A DNA stretch of 64,000 bases from an uncultured Candidatus Altimarinota bacterium (GTDB lineage Bacteria > Patescibacteriota > Gracilibacteria > BD1-5 > UBA2023), in assembly GCA_963763105.1 (NCBI GenBank), contig CAVXMT010000005.1, positions 4,685 to 68,684 of the forward strand. Reading direction: 5' to 3'. Positions 2,628 to 51,420 of this stretch are shown piece by piece. The number at the start of each line of letters is the position of its first letter. Positions within the stretch are counted from its first letter, which is position 1. A program made the position numbers and the translations under genes. The notes under the pieces are model-generated. The model ran no database searches. It was not told the origin of the DNA and saw nothing but the letters and a program-made list of their open reading frames with translations.

Positions 2628-4268
2628 ATGAAAATAATTTTTGTCACATGAGGTGTTCTCTCTGGTATTGGGAAAGGTATTTCTGCCGCCTCGATCGGAG
2701 CTATCCTCAAGGGTATGGGAAAGAATGTCTATTGTCAAAAGATTGACTGATATCTCAATGTTGATCCAGGAACCATGTCGCCATTCCAGCATGGAGAGGT
2801 TTTTGTCACAGAGGATTGAGCCGAGACAGATCTCGATATTGGTCACTACGAGCGATTCCTCGATACCGACATGAATCGATTTTCCTCATTTACTTCTGGA
2901 AAACTCTATGAAGAAATCATTACCAAAGAGCGTCGTGGAGATTATCTTGGTGGTACTGTCCAGATCGTACCACATTTGACGGATCTTGTGAAAGAAAAAA
3001 TACGATCAGGATTTGATCTCGCAGGTGCTGATATTTCGATCGTCGAAATCGGAGGAACAGTCGGAGATATGGAGAATGAATATATTCTCGAATCAGCCCG
3101 TCAACTTCAGCATGATCTTGGAAAAGAGAATGTAATTTTTGTTCATGTAGCACTTCTTCCATATCTTGCTGCAAGCAAAGAACTCAAGACAAAGCCAATC
3201 CAGCACTCTGTCCGAACACTCATGAGCTATGGAATCAATCCTGATTTTCTCATCATCCGTGCGGATGCCCCGATTCCAGAGGATGTGATAGAGAAGATTG
3301 CACATTCGACGGGAATTTCCAGTACACATGTGATTCCAGCGCCGACGCTTGATTCGATTTATCGAGTTCCACTTTCTTTTCATGCGGAGCATTTCTGAGA
3401 GAAGATTTTTGCTGATCTCGGACTTCCAGAAGTGAAAGCAGACATGAAAAAATGGGAAATTCTTCTTGCAAACATAGACGCTTCACACGATATTCTTCGT
3501 ATCGCTATGGTCGGGAAATATGTCGGACTTGAGGATGCATATTATTCACTCAATGAATGACTCAAAGCAGCAGGATTTGCTCATCAGAAAAAGGTAAAAC
3601 TTGAATTCATCGAAGCAGAAGATATAGAAAAGGAATTGAAAATTGAAAATTGAAAATTGAAAATTACGGATCAAGGAAAGATCTCAGAAATCAAAATCCT
3701 TCAATGATTCGATGGAATCTGCATTCCTGGAGGATTCGGGACGCGTGGAACAGAAGGGATGATCGAAGCTGCAAAGTATGCTCGAGAGAATAAAATTCCT
3801 TATCTCGGAATCTGTCTTGGCTCACAAATAATGGCAATCGAATTTGCACGCAATGTTCTCGGAATTGTGGATGCTTCGAGTGAAGAATTCAATGTTGAAT
3901 GAAAGAATAATATCATCCATATTATGGAACATCAAAAAGGCCTCACGACGAAGTGAGGAAATATGAGACTTGGATCCTATCCATGTATCATTCATGAAGG
4001 GACATTGGCTGGAAAAATTTATAATGAACTTACTGTCTCAGAACGTCATCGTCATCGATTTGAATTCAATCCTGCATATCGCGAACAGATGGAAGCAAAA
4101 GGATTTCTCGTCTCAGCGACGTCACCTGATGGGACACTTGCTGAAGTCGTAGAGATCAAAGATCATCCATATATGATCGCAACACAATCTCATCCTGAGC
4201 TTATTTCTCGTCCGACAAGACCTCATCCACTTTTCATGGGATTTGTGAAGGCAATGATCGGTTCGTAA
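2628..4268 (+). CDS. pyrG: CTP synthase
   Basis: MKIIFVT-G(TGA)-GVLSGIGKG N-terminus, GGTVQIVPH, GATase domain PGGFGTRG...LGICLGSQ...HRHRFEFN. Single frame from 2628 to the TAA at 4266. Confidence 0.95.
3634..3665. repeat. (AATTGAA)x4.5 heptamer tandem array inside pyrG
   Basis: aattgaa aattgaa aattgaa aattgaa aatt, translated in frame as ELKIEN-G(TGA)-KLKI in the inter-domain linker. Confidence 0.9.
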
Positions 4269-5473: not shown

Positions 5474-7165
5474 ATGCTTAAGCTTTCCACGTTCCCATTC
5501 AAGACACTCAAGACCCTTCCAAAAGTGAGTGATAATAAGTCTACTTCTATCCTTCTTCAGGGATGATATATTCGCCAATGCATGGCAGGCGCGTATGAAT
5601 TTCTCCCGATAGGATATAGAGTACTTCGTAATATCGAAAATATTGTCCGTGAAGAAATGGATAATGCTGGCTATCATGAGATGCTTATGACTATACTCAC
5701 TCCTCGTGAGCTCTGGGATACGACCAATCGATGGGATATTCCAGAATATTTCAAGGTGCCTGGATGGGGAACGAGCGAGTTTCGTATTGCACCGACGAAT
5801 GAAGAAAATGTCACCAGTATTTTCCGAGAATTTATCCAGTCGTACAAGGATCTTCCGACGTGCGTCTATCATATTCAGAAAAAGTTTCGAAATGAGAAAC
5901 GAGCAAAATCAGGACTTCTTCGTGGTCGAGAATTTATCATGAAGGATGCCTATTCTTTCCATGCAAATATAGAGGATTTCGAAGCTTTCTATGAGAATAT
6001 CAAGTGAGTCTATATGCGAGTTTTTGAGCGACTTGGAATTGGTGCTGATACAGTCATTGCTGATGCTGATGGTGGCGCTATTTCTGACAAGAATTCTCAT
6101 GAATTTCAGACATTTATCGAAATTGGTGAAGATACTATTGTGCAGGATAGCTCAGGATATTCATACAATCTTGAGCTTGCTTCAGGAATTGCCGATACAA
6201 AAAATCCTGATGAGAAAATACAGTCTCTTGAGTATATCGATACCATCGATGAGATCGTCACTATGGAAAAGATGACGAAATATTTCAATGCTCCAGCTTG
6301 GCAGATGCTCAAGACAGTTGTCTATAAGACAAAAAGTGGAAAATTTTTCTCTATTGTCATTCGATGAGATCTTGATGTGAATGAGATCAAGGTTCGTAAA
6401 TTTGTCGCAAAAAAATATGGTGAAGAATTTACTCAAGCAACAGAGGATGACTTGATTTCTCTCGGTACTGTTCGTGGATTTATTACACCAATACGAGCTT
6501 CAAAACTCAAGATGGAAAACTTTGGTGATGAATCTCTTATGAGTGCGAAGAATTATTTTGGTGGCGCGAATACACTCGCAAAATCGACAAAAAATGTAAA
6601 TATTGCTGATCTTGATATTGCTGAATTCCTTGATTTCAATGAACCAATCGAATGATTTACTTCTCGAAATGTATCTGGCGAAAAGCTCACATTTCGTAAA
6701 GCATGTGAAGTAGGGAATATTTTTCATCTGGGAGAGAAATATTCGAAACCATTCGGACTCGCATATTCTGATGAGAACAATAATACTGTAAATCGAGTAG
6801 AAATGGGATGTTATGGAATCGGAGTTTCGCGACTTATGGGCGTTCTCGCTGAGTATTTCATGACAGAAAGTGGAATTGCTTGGCCAGAATCTGTTGCCCC
6901 TGCTGATTATTATATTATTGTGCTCGGTGAAGAAAATATTGCTTGAGCAACTATCCTTGCAAAATCTCTCGAGAAAGAATGAAAGACAGTTATTCTTGAT
7001 GATCGAATGGGTGGAAAATTTGGATTTGGTCAGAAGGCAGCTGATTGCGATCTCTGGGGTATTCCGAATCGGATTGTTCTTTCACCGGGGACTCTTGGAG
7101 AAGGAGGATACGAAGTGAAGGGGCGAACACAAAGTGAAAGTGAAATAATTCCATATTCTTTTTAG
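5474..7165 (+). CDS. proS: prolyl-tRNA synthetase
   Basis: Class II aaRS motifs FRNEKRAKSGLLRGREFIMKDAYSF and EVGNIFHLGEKYS, GCYGIGVSRLMGV, plus a C-terminal anticodon-binding domain. Every codon from 6653 to 7165 checked in frame. Confidence 0.95.
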
Positions 7166-7175
7166 CTTAATTTTT

Positions 7176-7802
7176 GTGAAGAGATTTCTTCTTTTTTTCA
7201 TCTTTCTCGGAGTTCTTTCTCTTTTTCCATGGTTTCTGATCTCAGGGATGGTATCAGATTCACTCTATCGTGATGTGGACGCTATTCCAGAACGAGAAGT
7301 CGGACTTCTTCTTGGGACGACCCCAAGTGTAAATGGAATCAATAATGTTTTCTATTCGACTCGCATCGAAGCTGCGAAAATGCTCTATGAACGGGGGAAG
7401 ATCCACCATATTCTTGTCTCATGAGATAATAGCACTGCCGCATATAATGAGCCTGAAGCGATGAGAAAATCACTTGTAAAGTCATGAATTCCAGAATCAG
7501 CGATTACACTCGACTATGCTGGATTTCGAACACTTGATTCTGTAGTGCGTGCTGGAGAAGTATTTTCTCTTACATGATGATTCACAATTATTTCTCAGCC
7601 ATTTCATGTCGAGCGAGCCCTCTTTCTTGCTCGGGCTAATCATATCGATGCGATCTGATATGGCTCTGCAAATGTGAGTCTATCTCTTGGGCTTCGTACC
7701 TATATTCGAGAAATTGGAGCTCGGTGGTTGGCGCTCTATGATGCTATTTTCGGAACAAATCCTATAGTGCTTGGTGATGTAGAGTTGCTCAATGGGAAAT
7801 AA
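7176..7802 (+). CDS. SanA/YdcF-like DUF218 membrane protein
   Basis: GTG start, N-terminal TM helix, then EREVGLLLGT...ILVS-G-DNSTAAYNEPEAMRKSL...IISQPFHVERALFLA. Confidence 0.75.
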
Positions 7803-23204: not shown

Positions 23205-24047
23205 ATGCCAATCAAGAAGTATAAGCCTACCACCCCATCTCGCCGTTTTATGACAGGGCTTACATATGAAGAACTCACTACCAATGAGCCGTATAAGCCA
23301 CTTACAACATATAAAAAAGATCAAGCAGGTCGCAATCATGCTGGGCGTATTTCAGTCCGTCATCAAGGTGGAGGGCATAAGAAACTCTATCGTATTGTAG
23401 ATTTTATTTTCGATAAGATTGATATTGCTGCTCGTGTGGAGACTGTCGAATATGATCCATACCGTTCTTCATTCATTGCTCTTGTTTGTTATAAGGATGG
23501 AGAAAGAAGATATGTTCTTGCTCATACAGAGACAAAAGTTGGTGATGAGATCATTACAGCACGACAGGCAAAACCAATCCCAGGGAATCGTATGGAAATC
23601 GGAAATGTCCCTACAGGTCTTTTCGTACATAATGTCGAGATGATTGTTGGACAAGGAGCAACCGCTATTCGATCGGCTGGATCGTCTGCACTTGTTCTCT
23701 CTCAAGAAGGCGAATACACACAACTCAAGATGTCAAGCGGAGAAATCAGACTTGTCCACAAGAATTGTTTCGCTACCATTGGAGTTGTCTCAAATGCTGA
23801 TTGGAATCAGATAACTATCGGTAAGGCAGGACGATCACGTTGGATGGGAAAAAGACCTACAGTTCTCGGTTCTTCTATGAATCCAGTCGATCATCCACAC
23901 GGATGAGGTGAAGGACACCAATCAGTCGGTCAGAGAAAGGGTCCAAAAACTCCATGGGGACAACTCGCTCGTGGTGTCAAGACTCGTTCTCGAAAATACA
24001 CAGACAGATGGGTTCTTCGTACTCGTGCTGGAAAACTTCAGGGCTAA
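23205..24047 (+). CDS. rplB: 50S ribosomal protein L2
   Basis: SSMNPVDHPHG-G(TGA, 23904-23906)-GEGH. This is the universally conserved HPHGGGEG motif. Confidence 0.97.
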
Positions 24048-24075
24048 TTCAATCTAAACTTTAATTTCTCTTATT

Positions 24076-24339: not shown

Positions 24340-24392
24340 TAGAAAATTCCAGAAATGGAAAAATTCAATCTAAACTCTAAAATCTTCATTTT

Positions 24393-29412: not shown

Positions 29413-30168
29413 ATGTCAGATATCCAGACTCAAACTCCTCCTGAAACTCTCGAAACTCCTCAAGAGCAATCTGGGGCGCCTTCACAAAGTCGTCCACCTC
29501 GAGATGGTGCTCGAAAGGAACATGGCGATCGTCCACGAGGACCACGCCGTGATGGTATGCGTGAAGAAGAAAAAGAATTCAAAGAAGAGCTTCTTGCTAT
29601 TGATCGAGTGACTCGTGTGACTGCCGGAGGTCGTCAGATTCGATTCCGTGCTTCTATCGTCATCGGTGATGGGAAGGGTCGTATCGGACTCGGTGTCGGA
29701 AAGGCTGGAGAAGTCCAAGTGGCTATCGAAAAGGCTATTCGTGATGCAAAAAAGAATCTTGTGACATTTCAGATCGTCAATGGAACAATTTCTCATGAAG
29801 TTTGTGTAGAATACAAGGCATCGTCTCTTCATATCCTTCCTGCTCATCCAGGTACAGGTATCATCGCCTGAGGTGCAGTACGAAAGATTTTCGCAGTATC
29901 TGGAGTCAAAGACGTCATCGCAAAACAACATGGAGCCCCAAATAAAATCACGAATGCTCGTGTCACACTCAAGGCACTCAGCGCACTCAAGCCTACGGCA
30001 CTCATCATAAAATTCTGATCTCAGAAGGCAGTAGTAGAAGTCAAAGAAGCTCCAGCTCCAAAAGAAGTAAAGGCTTCAGATGCAAAAACAACACCAGAAG
30101 TAAAAGCTGAAAAAGTAGCAAAAGCTGCTCCAGCAAAGAAAGCTCCAGCAAAGAAAAAAGCAGAATAA
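29413..30168 (+). CDS. rpsE: 30S ribosomal protein S5 with P/R/E-rich N-terminal and K/A/P-rich C-terminal extensions
   Basis: AIDRVTRVTAGGRQIRFRASIVIGDGKGRIGLGVGKA core. 251 codons. Confidence 0.93.
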
Positions 30169-30257
30169 TTCACTCAGATACTAGATTTCTGATGACAAAT
30201 TCTAGAAATGGAACAGTCAAACTAAAATCTCATCGCTAAAATCTAATTTCCCAATTT

Positions 30258-30713
30258 ATGACAACTCTTACTACACTCAAGCCTACTCTCGGTTCTCAAA
30301 CACGTTGACGTCGCGTCGCTCGCGGTGTGAGCTCCGGTCTCGGAGGAACATGTGGACGCGGTATGAACGGACAGAACTGTCGTACAGGAAAAGGAAAACG
30401 TTATCCTACATTCGAAGGAGGACAGACTCGTCTTTTTATGCGTACTCCGAAAAAGAGAGGATTCACCGCTTATGCTCCAAAAGAATTTGTCACAATCAAT
30501 CTTGATCAGATCCAGAAGATCGCTGACTCAGGAGTCACGACTATTGACTACGCTGTTCTCTATGAACGTCGCATGATCAGAGAGAAAGGAAAACTTCTTA
30601 AGATTCTCGGTCGCGGTACTCTCACTTCAAAAATTGAACTCATGGCTGACTCAGTCTCTCTCGGTGCTCGCACTATGATTGAGAAAGTAGGAGGGAGTGT
30701 GAATGTTGCATAA
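30258..30713 (+). CDS. rplO: 50S ribosomal protein L15
   Basis: [36 protein letters not shown]. Confidence 0.94.
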
Positions 30714-30760
30714 TACAATCCTAGAAAATAATCTCTCATGAAAATGGGGGATTTTTTGTT
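30681..30760 (+). repeat. left copy of the direct repeat (rplO 3' end plus terminator) bracketing the AbiE cassette
   Basis: GAGAAAGTAGGAGGgAgtGTGAATgT...AATCTCTCATGAAAATGGGGGATTTTTTGTTT, repeated at 32111-32250. Confidence 0.85.
30731..30758 (+). terminator. rplO terminator hairpin
   Basis: ATCTCTCA-tgaaaa-TGGGGGAT followed by TTTTTT. Confidence 0.55.
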
Positions 30761-30763
30761 TTT

Positions 30764-30780
30764 TTGCAATAGTATTGCAA
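30764..30780. promoter_or_regulatory. perfect 8-1-8 palindrome, candidate AbiEi operator
   Basis: TTGCAATA-g-TATTGCAA, 52 nt upstream of the AbiEi ATG. TATACT lies at 30796-30801. Confidence 0.4.
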
Positions 30781-30831
30781 TATTTTTATTATTGGTATAC
30801 TATAACCATGATAAAATCTAATGTATAGTAT

Positions 30832-31425
30832 ATGAAAAATAAGTTTGTACAAATTGCCACTTCAGGAAGTACGGTTTTTTCGTATAGTGATCTTGCATAC
30901 TTTTTCGGAAATGATAAACAAAAATTAACAGCAAAGATTGCTTATTATGCCAAGAGAGGATACCTATATCAGATTAAAAGATGACTCTATTCTCTGGGGA
31001 AAGATTATGATATATTTGAGATGGCAACAAAGATACAGAAACCAAGCTATATCAGCCTGCAATCAGCACTTTGATTTTATGGGATGAATTTTCAGCATGA
31101 TGGAACTATCTATGTGGTAGGATACAAGACAGAAGAGATAGATGTTGATGGTAAGAAAATATCCTTCAAAGTACTGAAGAAAAAAATACGAGAAAACTTT
31201 TCTGGTATCATATCTGAAAAAGGGTACGCAATTGCATCAAGAGAACGAGCTGTCCTTGATACTCTCTATCTCTATAAACAGTACTTTTTTGATAATCTCG
31301 AAGGCATCAATTGGATCGCGGTAAAAGAACTTGTAAAAATCTATGATTCAAAAATCTTCGAAAGGAGAGTGAATATTTTATATGCTAACTATACCAAGAA
31401 TGGATACTATAGCGAGATTGGATAA
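30832..31425 (+). CDS. AbiEi-like antitoxin/transcriptional regulator (type IV TA)
   Basis: Paired with and overlapping an AbiEii gene. N-terminal wHTH-like ...AYYAKRGYLYQIKR-G-LYSL; C-terminal ...RERAVLDTLY. Identification is by family resemblance only. Confidence 0.65.
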
Positions 31426-32104
31426 GGAAAAGCACCGAAATATCATGCTGAATATACTCGTCGATATATATAGAGACTTTGATCTTGGAACTTCTTTGGT
31501 TTTCAAGTGAGGAACAGCTTGTTATTTTGTTTATGGACTTGATAGGTTCTCTACTGATTTGGATTTTGATCTCATTGGGGAAATAGATGAGTCTCTCATT
31601 CTTGAGAAGATCAATACAATTATCTGAAAATACGGAACAGTAAAAAATGTCTATAACAAGAGAAATACGCTCTTTTCTCTCCTCAGTTATGGTGATATAG
31701 ATCACAATATCAAGATAGAGATTTCGAAAAGATGAATCAGAGGATCCTATCACAAGGAGAATTGGCACTCTCTCAGTATGCTCGTCATGGATGAATCATC
31801 TATATTTACCAACAAGCTGTTTGCTCTGACGAACAGAGCATCTTTGGCGAATAGAGACATCTACGATATCTACTATTTCTTCAGAAAATGAGTGGATTTT
31901 GATCAAGATCTCCTCGAACAATTGACAACAAAAAACTATAAAGAATATTTTAGAGATATCATTCTCTTCTTGGATAATCTTCCGAAAAGTCATAGGATTC
32001 TTGAATGACTCGGAGAGGTTTTGGATGAGAAACAGAAGGCGTTTGTCAAAAATGATCTTGTACGAGAATTGCGGTGATTTTTGGAGATGAGGATAGGGTT
32101 TTAA
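31382..32104 (+). CDS. AbiEii-like nucleotidyltransferase toxin (DUF1814 family)
   Basis: LVFK-G(TGA, 31508-31510)-GTACYF...RFSTDLDFD nucleotidyltransferase motif. ...ANRDIYDIYYF. TAA stop at 32102. Confidence 0.75.
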
Positions 32105-32145
32105 TGAGGTGAGAAAGTAGGAGGTACGGTGAATATATAGTTTCC

Positions 32146-32207
32146 GTCATTCCTGCGTAGGTCTTCGATCAAATGGAGTGATACCCTTGCGGTACAGGAA
32201 TCTAGAA
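32146..32207 (+). repeat. REP-like element, copy 2 (long form)
   Basis: GTCATTCCTGCGtagg...N35...ggtaCAGGAATCtAGaAT. Compare GTCATTCCTGCGaaggCAGGAATCcAGtAT at 788. Confidence 0.7.
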
Positions 32208-32218
32208 TAGAAAATCAT

Positions 32219-32247
32219 AATCTCTCATGAAAATGAGGGATTTTTTG
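32219..32247 (+). terminator. duplicated terminator hairpin upstream of secY
   Basis: ATCTCTCA-tgaaaa-TGAGGGAT followed by TTTTTT. Confidence 0.55.
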
Positions 32248-32408
32248 TTTAGTTATTTCATGAAAGAAGAAGTAAAAAATCTTTTCAAAAAAATAATTTA
32301 TGATAAAAAGAAGTTTCTACTTTTCTTTGCTTTTTCCGTTTTTTTCCCTAGAATACGCTCGATTCATTGCTTTTGCATCCATATTTTGTCTTACTAATTC
32401 TTCTCTCT

Positions 32409-33734
32409 ATGATCGCTAATCTCCAAAAAGTCTGGGAAACAGAACATATCCGCAAAAAAATACTCTTCACGCTTGGGATTGTTGTTGTATATAAGCTCCT
32501 TGCGACTATACCAGTTCCAGGAGTGAATATTGCACTATTGGATGCCTTTACTGAGCAACTTCGTGCGAATACACAGCTTGCATTTTTTGGCTCTATTATG
32601 GGAGGTGGACTCGAGCAATTCTCGATTATCCTCATGGGTCTTGCACCATATATCAATGCGACGATCATTATACAGCTTCTTACTGTCATTATCCCTTCAC
32701 TTGAATCACTCAAAAAGGAAGGTGAACAAGGACAGAAGAAAATCAATAATTATACTCGATACCTCACAGTTCCTCTCGCTCTTGCTCAGAGCTACGGTAT
32801 GATCTATCTCTTGAATACTATTATCGGAACTCAGGCTGGTGGTGGTGGGGCAAGCATTATAGATACTACCAATTTTTGGTGAGTAGTCCTTCCTGCGATG
32901 CTTGCTATTACCGCAGGTACTATGGTTCTTCTCTGGCTTGGTGATCTCATCACAGAGTCTGGTATAGGAAATGGAAGCTCGATCATCATCTTTGCCTGAG
33001 TCCTTGCCTGAGTTCCTCAGCATATATTGAATTATGTGACAACGGAAAACTACGGGCTTCTTCTTATTCTTGCGCTTCTTACAGTAGTCGTCATCTATAT
33101 TATCGTGAAGTTCACAGAATGATATAGGAAAGTTCCTCTTATCTATACACGCACAGGCCGAGATGAGCGATCGTATTTTCCTATCAGAGTCAATCAAGCA
33201 GGAATGGTTCCTATTATCTTCGCCGTTTCTCTTATCACTTTCCCTTCTCTTATTGGACAGATTCTCCAGCGTCGTGGAACAGGGATGGGTGCAAATGTGG
33301 GAGAATGGCTCGCGACAAACCTTTCTATGCAAAATCCAGGATGGATATATATTCTTGCGTATGCTCTCTTGGTTCTTGGATTCTCATTTTTCTATGTATC
33401 TATTACCTTCAATACGACAGAAGTCGCAGAAAGTGTCCAGAAGCGTGGTGGATATATTCCAGGAGTTCGTCCAGGAAAAGAGACAGCGACATATCTTCAA
33501 AAAGTTTCTGATAGACTCAATCTTTTTGGTGGTGGATTTCTTGCGCTCATTGCTGTATTTCCATATCTTGCGACAAAAATAGTTCCTCTTCTTGGATTCT
33601 CATCAGCTGGTGCTACACAGATAGATTTTCTCATCTCTGGTTCTGGACTTATCATCGTCGTCGGAGTCATCCTTGATATTATTCGTCGAATTGATACCGA
33701 TATGAAGAGTTTTGATTATAAGAAATTCCATTAA
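32409..33734 (+). CDS. secY: preprotein translocase subunit SecY
   Basis: [18 protein letters not shown]..., [46 protein letters not shown]. Codons 32880-33204 verified in frame. Confidence 0.95.
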
Positions 33735-38234: not shown

Positions 38235-38266
38235 AAACTGGATTGCTTCGTACCTCGCAATGACGG
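38235..38266 (-). repeat. REP-like element, copy 3 (variant core, opposite orientation)
   Basis: The reverse complement reads cGTCATTGCGAGGTACGAAGCAATCCAGTTTTTCT. Confidence 0.6.
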
Positions 38267-46630: not shown

Positions 46631-46672
46631 TTTATTACTAAAACCTCACTCTAAACTCTAAAATCTAAACCT

Positions 46673-51379: not shown

Positions 51380-51420
51380 TTCAGACTAAAATCTCAATCT
51401 AAAATCTAAAATTCCTTTCT

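Follow-up and report, generated by a model that had tools for sequence, protein, structure and literature searches.

We found that, in a 64,000-nucleotide stretch of contig CAVXMT010000005.1 from an uncultured Candidatus Altimarinota bacterium (the whole stretch analysed, hereafter the window), the ribosomal protein gene rplO and the secY gene are separated by an inserted AbiE toxin-antitoxin cassette, after which the 3′ end of rplO and its terminator are repeated. The AbiE operon has probably entered by homology-assisted insertion at the end of rplO, without a dedicated recombinase, the insertion route being the least certain step of this account. The two flanking genes lie 1,696 nucleotides (nt) apart, in agreement with an earlier first-pass annotation of this DNA, which had described a gap of ~1.7 kb holding an insert. 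As that annotation also stated, no recombinase gene accompanies the cassette: abiEi and abiEii take up all coding capacity of the insert. The window was assigned to Gracilibacteria by its L15 homologues; the L15 protein encoded by the live rplO gene is 99% identical to protein P0121 and 70–91% identical to Gracilibacteria L15 proteins carrying Pfam PF00828. Independent assemblies, designated here like all other compared loci by L numbers, repeat the same structure (L010, 99.97% identical; L013, 96%; L002–L004, 97.7%), which rules out an assembly artefact.

Comparison with relatives supports the insertion, and the search for empty sites proposed in the first-pass annotation turned out in its favour. 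In L011/L012 (an 88%-identical relative), rplO is followed by one terminator hairpin, ~74 nt and the secY leader, with neither cassette nor duplication. Empty sites are also present in ~13 GTDB representatives (73–220 nt, single terminator). Since relatives with empty sites lack the duplication as well, the repeat is tied to the insertion. The window and its relatives cease to match at ~30757–30765 and match again from ~32318–32320, and the insert is more AT-rich than its flanks. Among 45 GTDB representatives and extra contigs, AbiE is found between rplO and secY only in the species of the window (window, L010, L013). The nearest foreign cassettes encode AbiEii proteins that are 81–84% identical, the next ones ≤65%, and what they share with the window is confined to 30775/30796–32105. 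They lie in unrelated neighbourhoods (L001, L005–L008, L061), and in L001, L005 and L061 there are no flanking repeats. A metagenome scan with GAGAAAGTAGGAGGNANNGTGAAT for empty-site strains or a remnant-like donor returned one chance match on an unrelated GC-rich contig. A viral-contig scan with AbiEii yielded no relative and no sign of a phage vehicle.

The repeat itself consists of two blocks, one covering the last rplO codons and the other the terminator (Table 1). Each block forms the only such pair in the window, and shuffled sequences are expected to yield none. Between the blocks lie 23 nt in the left copy and 82 nt in the right copy, and these stretches do not align. The ‘~80-nt direct repeats’ of the first-pass annotation are thus real as repeats, but their contiguity was overstated. 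Translation confirmed the reading of the displaced remnant, GEKVGGTVNI followed by a stop, against the live rplO tail, IEKVGGSVNVA followed by a stop; the two differ by one synonymous change, a Ser to Thr and a Val to Ile replacement. Some natural L15 variants, such as P0169 (...EKVGGSVNI), end at the position of the stop in the remnant. Both the live tail and the remnant have EKVGG, and the nearest relatives EKAGG. The remnant together with the extra segment that follows it in the right copy differs between strains at 1 of 107 nt, versus 3.1% in rplO. In the sister strains L013 (~6840–6865) and L002 (~1360–1390; window 32091–32120), small indels in the last abiEii codons (window ~32091–32100) shift the frame past the TAA stop, and AbiEii ends there as ...GFNEVRK inside the rplO remnant.

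Table 1. Positions of the features discussed, in window coordinates unless another locus is named
Feature	Position	Strand	Basis and remarks
rplO (ribosomal protein L15), live gene	30258-30713	+	Code-25 translation; tail ...MIEKVGGSVNVA and stop
Direct repeat block 1, left copy (last rplO codons)	30680-30704	+	22/25 match to 32110-32134
Direct repeat block 2, left copy = rplO intrinsic terminator	30728-30761	+	Hairpin 30730-30753 and T-run; terminator scan; 33/34 match to 32217-32250
Palindrome TTGCAATAgTATTGCAA	30764-30780	+	Right half 30775-30780, TTGCAA, is the -35-like hexamer of the cassette promoter; left half at the insertion junction
Candidate AbiEi operator	30796-30834	+	Inverted repeat TATACTATA (30796-30804) - N19 - TATAGTATA (30824-30832)
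abiEi (ORF-A; antitoxin/autorepressor), 197 amino acids	30832-31425	+	2 in-frame TGA-Gly codons
abiEii (ORF-B; DUF1814 nucleotidyltransferase toxin), 240 amino acids	31382-32104	+	6 in-frame TGA-Gly codons
Displaced rplO 3′ remnant	32110-32140	+	Right copy of block 1 (32110-32134) and its own stop; reads (G)EKVGGTVNI
Extra segment in right copy, imperfect palindromic element	32146-32205	+	Begins GTCATTCCTGCG, ends CAGGAATCTAG
Direct repeat block 2, right copy = second terminator hairpin (32219-32242)	32217-32250	+	z = -3.57; T-run; terminator scan; placed to end the abiE transcript
secY promoter-like element TTGCTT - N16 - TAGAAT	32327-32354	+	Sigma-70-like motif conserved upstream of secY
secY	32409-33734	+	Code-25 translation; 80% nucleotide identity to secY of L009 and L011
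rplO tail copy pair in another lineage	L035 3960-4013 and 5290-5342; L036 1830-1879		Sequence comparison

The family assignment made in the first-pass annotation was borne out by the AbiEi and AbiEii/DUF1814 profile searches that it had proposed, by the AbiEii motifs and by the predicted AbiEi fold. AbiEii exceeds the gathering score of Pfam PF08843 (E = 9.3e-19; 68.7 bits, cutoff 22.5) and matches the PADLOC AbiEii profile over residues 14–236, almost its whole length (1.7e-56). It aligns to the solved DUF1814 nucleotidyltransferase 4o8s/4ok0 with the motif residues kept (E = 3e-6 to 4o8s). Motifs I (hG[G/S]), II (DhD with an upstream R), III (KLxAaxxR) and IV (a conserved D) are required for the toxicity of Streptococcus agalactiae AbiEii (PMC3985639). 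All four nucleotidyltransferase motifs are present in the protein of the window, as FKGGTA (G43/G44), RFSTDLDFD (R55, D59, D61), KLFALTNR (K144–R150) and RDIYD. We collected 1,842 AbiEii homologues, many of them from Gracilibacteria and Patescibacteria. AbiEi matches the PADLOC AbiEi profile in full length (8.7e-41; residues 6–185, 186-position profile). Weighing against its assignment, it falls below the cutoffs of Pfam AbiEi_4 (E = 0.0012; 19.4 bits versus 25) and NCBIfam TAA_AbiEi (3e-8; 33.5 bits versus 150). Because of these scores its structure was predicted. The AlphaFold model, built from 47 homologues, has a mean predicted local distance difference test (pLDDT) score of 91.8, and its top PDB match is S. 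agalactiae AbiEi 6y8q (200 columns, full length; template modelling score 0.61; probability 1.00; 12% identity). The operon is antitoxin-first, on one strand, and its genes overlap by 44 nt; the antitoxin-first overlapping arrangement also occurs in L001, L005, L059 and L061. By its sequence, then, the insert shows the make-up of an intact, self-contained AbiE type IV toxin-antitoxin/abortive-infection operon with a predicted promoter, a candidate operator, abiEi, abiEii and a terminator. As expected from the family, AbiEii would be a GTP-binding nucleotidyltransferase that arrests growth, and AbiEi would neutralise it and repress the operon. The result would be that the operon defends against phage, stabilises its locus or does both. 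The AbiE module itself is a further member of a well-known family; what is new is its genomic context.

The genes become visible only under genetic code 25. Translated with table 11, the region falls apart into short open reading frames (ORFs) broken at in-frame TGA codons, and reading TGA as Gly restores the genes, with the coordinates and the overlap that the first-pass annotation had given. Its claim that both cassette genes use TGA for Gly also stands. The eight TGA codons fall largely on glycine columns of the homologue alignments, and one of them is residue 43 of AbiEii, the essential glycine of motif I. Homologues have G (n = 65) or ‘W’ (n = 54) at this position, ‘W’ being TGA as rendered by a code-4 gene caller. 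This alignment confirms that TGA is Gly, and the presence of TGA at the same codon in many homologues implies that the AbiEii family has long been established in recoded lineages.

A sequence scan gave a promoter-like match at 30764–30792. Downstream of the -35-like hexamer, the left arm of the inverted repeat TATACTATA-N19-TATAGTATA overlaps a -10-like TATACT and its right arm overlaps the abiEi ATG. Across five cassettes with proteins 62–84% identical, neither arm varies, in contrast to the spacer. The pattern occurs once in the window (zero expected) and, among the fetched loci, only in the 10 that carry a cassette 5′ end. S. agalactiae AbiEi binds inverted repeats that overlap its promoter and exerts negative autoregulation (PMC7319586). 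The conserved repeat fits such autoregulation and makes a likely candidate for the AbiEi operator; AbiEi would repress the operon by binding it over the -10 region and the start codon. In the first-pass annotation this role had been suggested for the perfect palindrome TTGCAATAgTATTGCAA. The palindrome is present as described, but it is a poor operator candidate, and we rejected it as the primary operator. A G to A change at 30766 breaks it in the sister strains L013 and L002, so that it is polymorphic within the species. Moreover, homology to the cassette of L059 begins at 30775, and only the right half of the palindrome is common to this nearest foreign cassette.

The cassette sits in a spacer of ~70 nt between the rplO terminator and the secY promoter. 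A hairpin terminator directly follows rplO in almost every Gracilibacteria locus, with the same sequence, AATCYCTCAYGNAARTGGGGGATT, in ~17 loci. In an alignment of 19 copies, 96.8% of cells are paired, versus 44–64% with the 3′ partner slid. Compensatory changes are seen at three pairs, and the G·U pairs require the plus strand. These patterns indicate that the hairpin is probably selected at the RNA level. Upstream of secY, the element TTG(C/A)(T/A)T-N16-TA(N)AAT is found in ~20 of 24 Gracilibacteria loci, whatever the gap contains. With a conserved terminator after rplO and a conserved promoter before secY, the junction in Gracilibacteria appears to be a boundary of transcription units and not an intra-operon joint, which bears on the question, raised in the first-pass annotation, of whether secY is read through from the ribosomal-protein promoter. 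The comparison shows it, as far as these predicted signals tell, to be a terminator/promoter boundary that tolerates inserts. The duplicated terminator would end the abiE transcript ahead of the secY promoter.

Such inserts are common and varied. The rplO–secY gaps measure 73–4,651 nt, and the filled ones (0.55–4.7 kb) hold at least 11 unrelated gene sets. In ~20 genomes no secY lies within 5 kb of rplO. Among the cargo identified are AAA_14/DUF4143 ATPases, type I and type IIG restriction-modification genes, DNA methyltransferases, an NYN-domain protein and a Schlafen/AlbA_2 protein. The insert and the slot cargo scanned from other genomes yielded no recombinase catalytic domain. With conserved flanks and variable, often defence-type content, the slot qualifies in these comparisons as a core-gene-flanked integration hotspot. 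One locus, L021 (5507–9355), holds in the rplO slot a 1,282-residue type IIG restriction-modification enzyme (Eco57I/MmeI/TaqI_C) with an embedded match to an IS200-like Y1 transposase domain (E = 4e-7). In L023, L024, L039 and ~17 other loci a different conserved gene set follows the terminator, and the rplO–secY linkage is broken in part of the clade.

Duplicated rplO ends are not confined to the window. In L035/L036 (L15 71% identical) the slot holds a DUF4143/AAA_14 ATPase gene, and directly behind it the rplO tail is present again, over 50 nt and at 90% identity. The L035 remnant reads SASAKVEIEKAGGSANV and the live tail SESAKVAIEKAGGSANV, each with a stop. Four of their six differences are synonymous (including a TGA/GGA exchange), the stop is kept, and a different terminator follows. 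In L048, the left half of the rplO terminator (AATAATCCCACATCGAGAGG, 20 nt) is present a second time without a mismatch (2949–2968 versus 4191–4210), directly after a DUF4143 ATPase cargo gene related to the cargo of L035/L036. Relative to the rplO end, the remnants start at -33 (window), -53 (L035/L036) and +14 (L048). In most filled slots, nothing is duplicated. L035 (5482–6231, minus strand) and L048 (4223–5176, minus strand) encode, between the rplO remnant and secY, INT_rpt-only proteins without a catalytic domain. The contig L059 (1,488 nt) carries an AbiE cassette (AbiEii 84% identical), and its positions 1–24 equal 1465–1488 (CCTCCCCTGAGAAGGGGAGG, hairpin-containing). Judging by these ends, it may be circular, or a cassette flanked by direct repeats or a duplicated terminator. 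In the sister strain L013, the 96% match to the window ends exactly at 32250, the end of the right terminator, and gives way to complete divergence. The terminator therefore behaves as a recombination joint. The 340 nt beyond it (L013 6996–7335) resemble the start of the NYN-domain cargo of L038 and contain no secY leader.

The right copy of the repeat is 59 nt longer than the left, and the first-pass annotation had attributed the excess to a 60-nt insert resembling repetitive extragenic palindromic (REP) elements. This held in part. The termini of the extra segment, GTCATTCCTGCG...CAGGAATCYAG, are common to a compact palindromic element at 789–815 (GTCATTCCTGCGAAGGCAGGAATCCAG). A variant, GTCATTGCGAGGTACGAAGCAATCCAG, lies at 38238–38264 on the minus strand, and another occurs in the tail of L013 (~7240–7275). 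The extra segment, the element at 789–815 and the variant at 38238–38264 share the frame TTTCC(C)GTCATT...AATCCAG. In full length, however, the extra segment is single-copy in the window, and the fold of the 82-nt stretch is indistinguishable from shuffles (z = -0.36 and +0.09 on the two strands). A REP-like nature is plausible in view of the termini, and we put it forward only tentatively. The idea that the segment is a strongly structured RNA was dropped because of the same z values. An Rfam search of 30000–32600 at E ≤ 1 returned only a spurious match (alphacoronavirus 5′ untranslated region, 16 bits), which places the hairpin and the extra segment outside known RNA families. We also discarded an integron cassette with an attC site; there is no intI, and by eye the extra segment has no R″/R′ core sites. 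Among other small elements, a recurrent intergenic motif, represented by the AAAAATTCAATCTAAACTCTAAAATCT family (24043–24069, 24359–24385, 46640–46666 and 51388–51414) and by a tandem CTAAAATCTCAT/CTAAAATCTAAT directly upstream of rplO (30222–30247), is found within ribosomal-protein clusters; it could be a leader or regulatory element.

How could the rplO end have come to be duplicated? In the account that we favour, the insertion would have been helped by sequence homologous to the conserved 3′ end of rplO and its terminator. The incoming DNA could have been circularised, carrying the cassette and an rplO-3′/terminator segment from a closely related lineage, and have entered by a Campbell-type single crossover. 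Alternatively, it could have been joined by homology-facilitated illegitimate recombination during DNA uptake. The latter process is documented (PMC3240628), as is transformation-generated merodiploidy (PMC3784515). Either route would duplicate the rplO end with its terminator and leave a displaced rplO tail from a second allele. Given the nature of the changes and the natural-type stop in the window remnant, and the synonymous bias in L035, both remnants look like ends of functional alleles from close lineages. A second functional allele is also what one would see if the cassette were left over from, or a satellite of, a site-specific integrative element that carries a replacement rplO tail. 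The rplO 3′ end would then be attB, the repeats attL and attR, and the integrase would act in trans (CIME/IMEX-like). Direct repeats of the 3′ end of a conserved gene flank the insert, as in islands that target gene 3′ ends; the possible circularity of L059 and the repeat-only INT_rpt proteins encoded in L035 and L048 at the insert edge next to secY would also fit. We nevertheless consider an integrative element unlikely. The varied remnant starts (no common att core), the mostly repeat-free slots and the lack of an integrase argue against a classical att-site mechanism, although a trans-acting enzyme could be encoded elsewhere in the genome. In addition, the same cassette is found elsewhere without flanking repeats.

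The duplication might also have been made in place, by a single replication or repair event or by tandem duplication followed by deletion. For example, replication halted by the terminator hairpin could have jumped to a foreign template and come back 82 nt behind its departure point. The copies would have been identical at birth, and the right one would since have decayed and gained the palindromic element. Several observations are in line with such an origin: the two terminators differ little and have derived states in common that set them apart from relatives, and terminator variants across strains suggest that both copies began as ...ATGGGGGAT. Both tails share the derived EKVGG, the L048 repeat is exact and local, and the right junction shows ATGA/TGAG microhomology. 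Still, we find an in-place event improbable. The changes in the remnant are conservative or synonymous, with an in-frame stop where natural L15 variants end; the L035 remnant is followed by a different terminator, which can be no decayed version of the left one; and the low divergence of the remnant and extra segment between strains shows that they are not fast-evolving. Finally, the cassette and duplication could be ancestral and have been lost together in relatives by recombination between the direct repeats, which would cleanly restore an empty site with one terminator and could release a circle such as L059 may be. Given that AbiE occupies the slot only in the species of the window, that the other loci examined hold unrelated cargo or none, and that the nearest cassette homologues sit at other genomic sites, we regard ancestral presence as extremely improbable. 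Homology-assisted insertion thus remains the preferred account, and several points weigh against it. The Campbell route and the illegitimate one call for contrary origins of the two copies, and the present data fit either. In all three lineages the remnant directly adjoins the cargo stop codon, which no model explains. Decay of a local duplicate could also account for the three mismatches of block 1 and for the stretch between the blocks that does not align, and the synonymous bias in L035 comes from six substitutions only (~p = 0.04, a rough binomial estimate). Neither an empty-site strain of the same species nor a donor genome was found.

These results bear on how the rplO–secY junction is used and read. 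Usually treated as a fixed part of the spc operon, in marker-gene concatenations and as a synteny anchor, it gathers accessory and defence genes in Gracilibacteria. With duplicated rplO tails found repeatedly, the gain of genes with no dedicated recombinase can be put to the test in organisms still out of reach of genetic manipulation. One may go further and picture the slot, though this is speculative and on balance doubtful, as a clade-wide, recombinase-free cassette exchange site, in which the rplO 3′ end and hairpin serve as portable homology and cassettes loop out and re-insert across lineages. If so, each cassette would keep the displaced rplO tail of its previous host, and such tails would document gene flow within the best-conserved gene cluster of the genome. 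A live rplO ending in ...GGTACGGTGAATATATAG and followed by the extra segment would, if found, mark the right copy as coming from another allele. The essential motif I glycine encoded by TGA provides a clean internal proof of TGA = Gly. It also points to a defence family long resident in recoded bacteria of the candidate phyla radiation (CPR), where standard annotation breaks both genes.

The closest known system is AbiE of S. agalactiae and Lactococcus (Dy et al. 2014, PMC3985639; 6y8q), which shares the toxin family (DUF1814/PF08843) with motifs I–IV kept, the two-domain antitoxin fold, the antitoxin-first operon with overlapping genes and an inverted repeat over the promoter/start region. 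In contrast to that system, the genes overlap by 44 nt instead of 4 nt, identity to S. agalactiae AbiEi is only ~12%, and the arms of the candidate operator are ~9–11 nt long and 19 nt apart, where that system has two 23-bp repeats 3 bp apart. Also unlike it, the cassette described here uses eight sense TGA-Gly codons, including that of the catalytic motif I glycine, and is chromosomal, within a ribosomal gene cluster. JHP933 of Helicobacter pylori (4o8s/4ok0) and the Mycobacterium tuberculosis MenT toxins are related through DUF1814, with KGxTA, RFSxDLDFD, KxEIS and RDxxD conserved, but differ from AbiEii in partner proteins and targets. MenT toxins modify tRNA acceptor stems.

With respect to the mode of entry, homology-facilitated illegitimate recombination (PMC3240628), merodiploidy (PMC3784515) and Campbell integration resemble the present case in that there is no element-encoded recombinase, one joint lies in conserved homology and the insert is flanked by a duplicated host segment. 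Here, these mechanisms are read from sequence scars. Core-gene-flanked integration hotspots and defence islands are a general concept. The rplO–secY slot is like them in that two core genes flank a site with turnover between relatives and a richness in defence genes. Unlike hotspots in general, it lies within the spc ribosomal cluster, at the normally tightly linked rplO–secY junction. A conserved terminator hairpin marks one edge of the slot and a conserved promoter the other, and several insertions have brought a second copy of the 3′ end of the upstream core gene.

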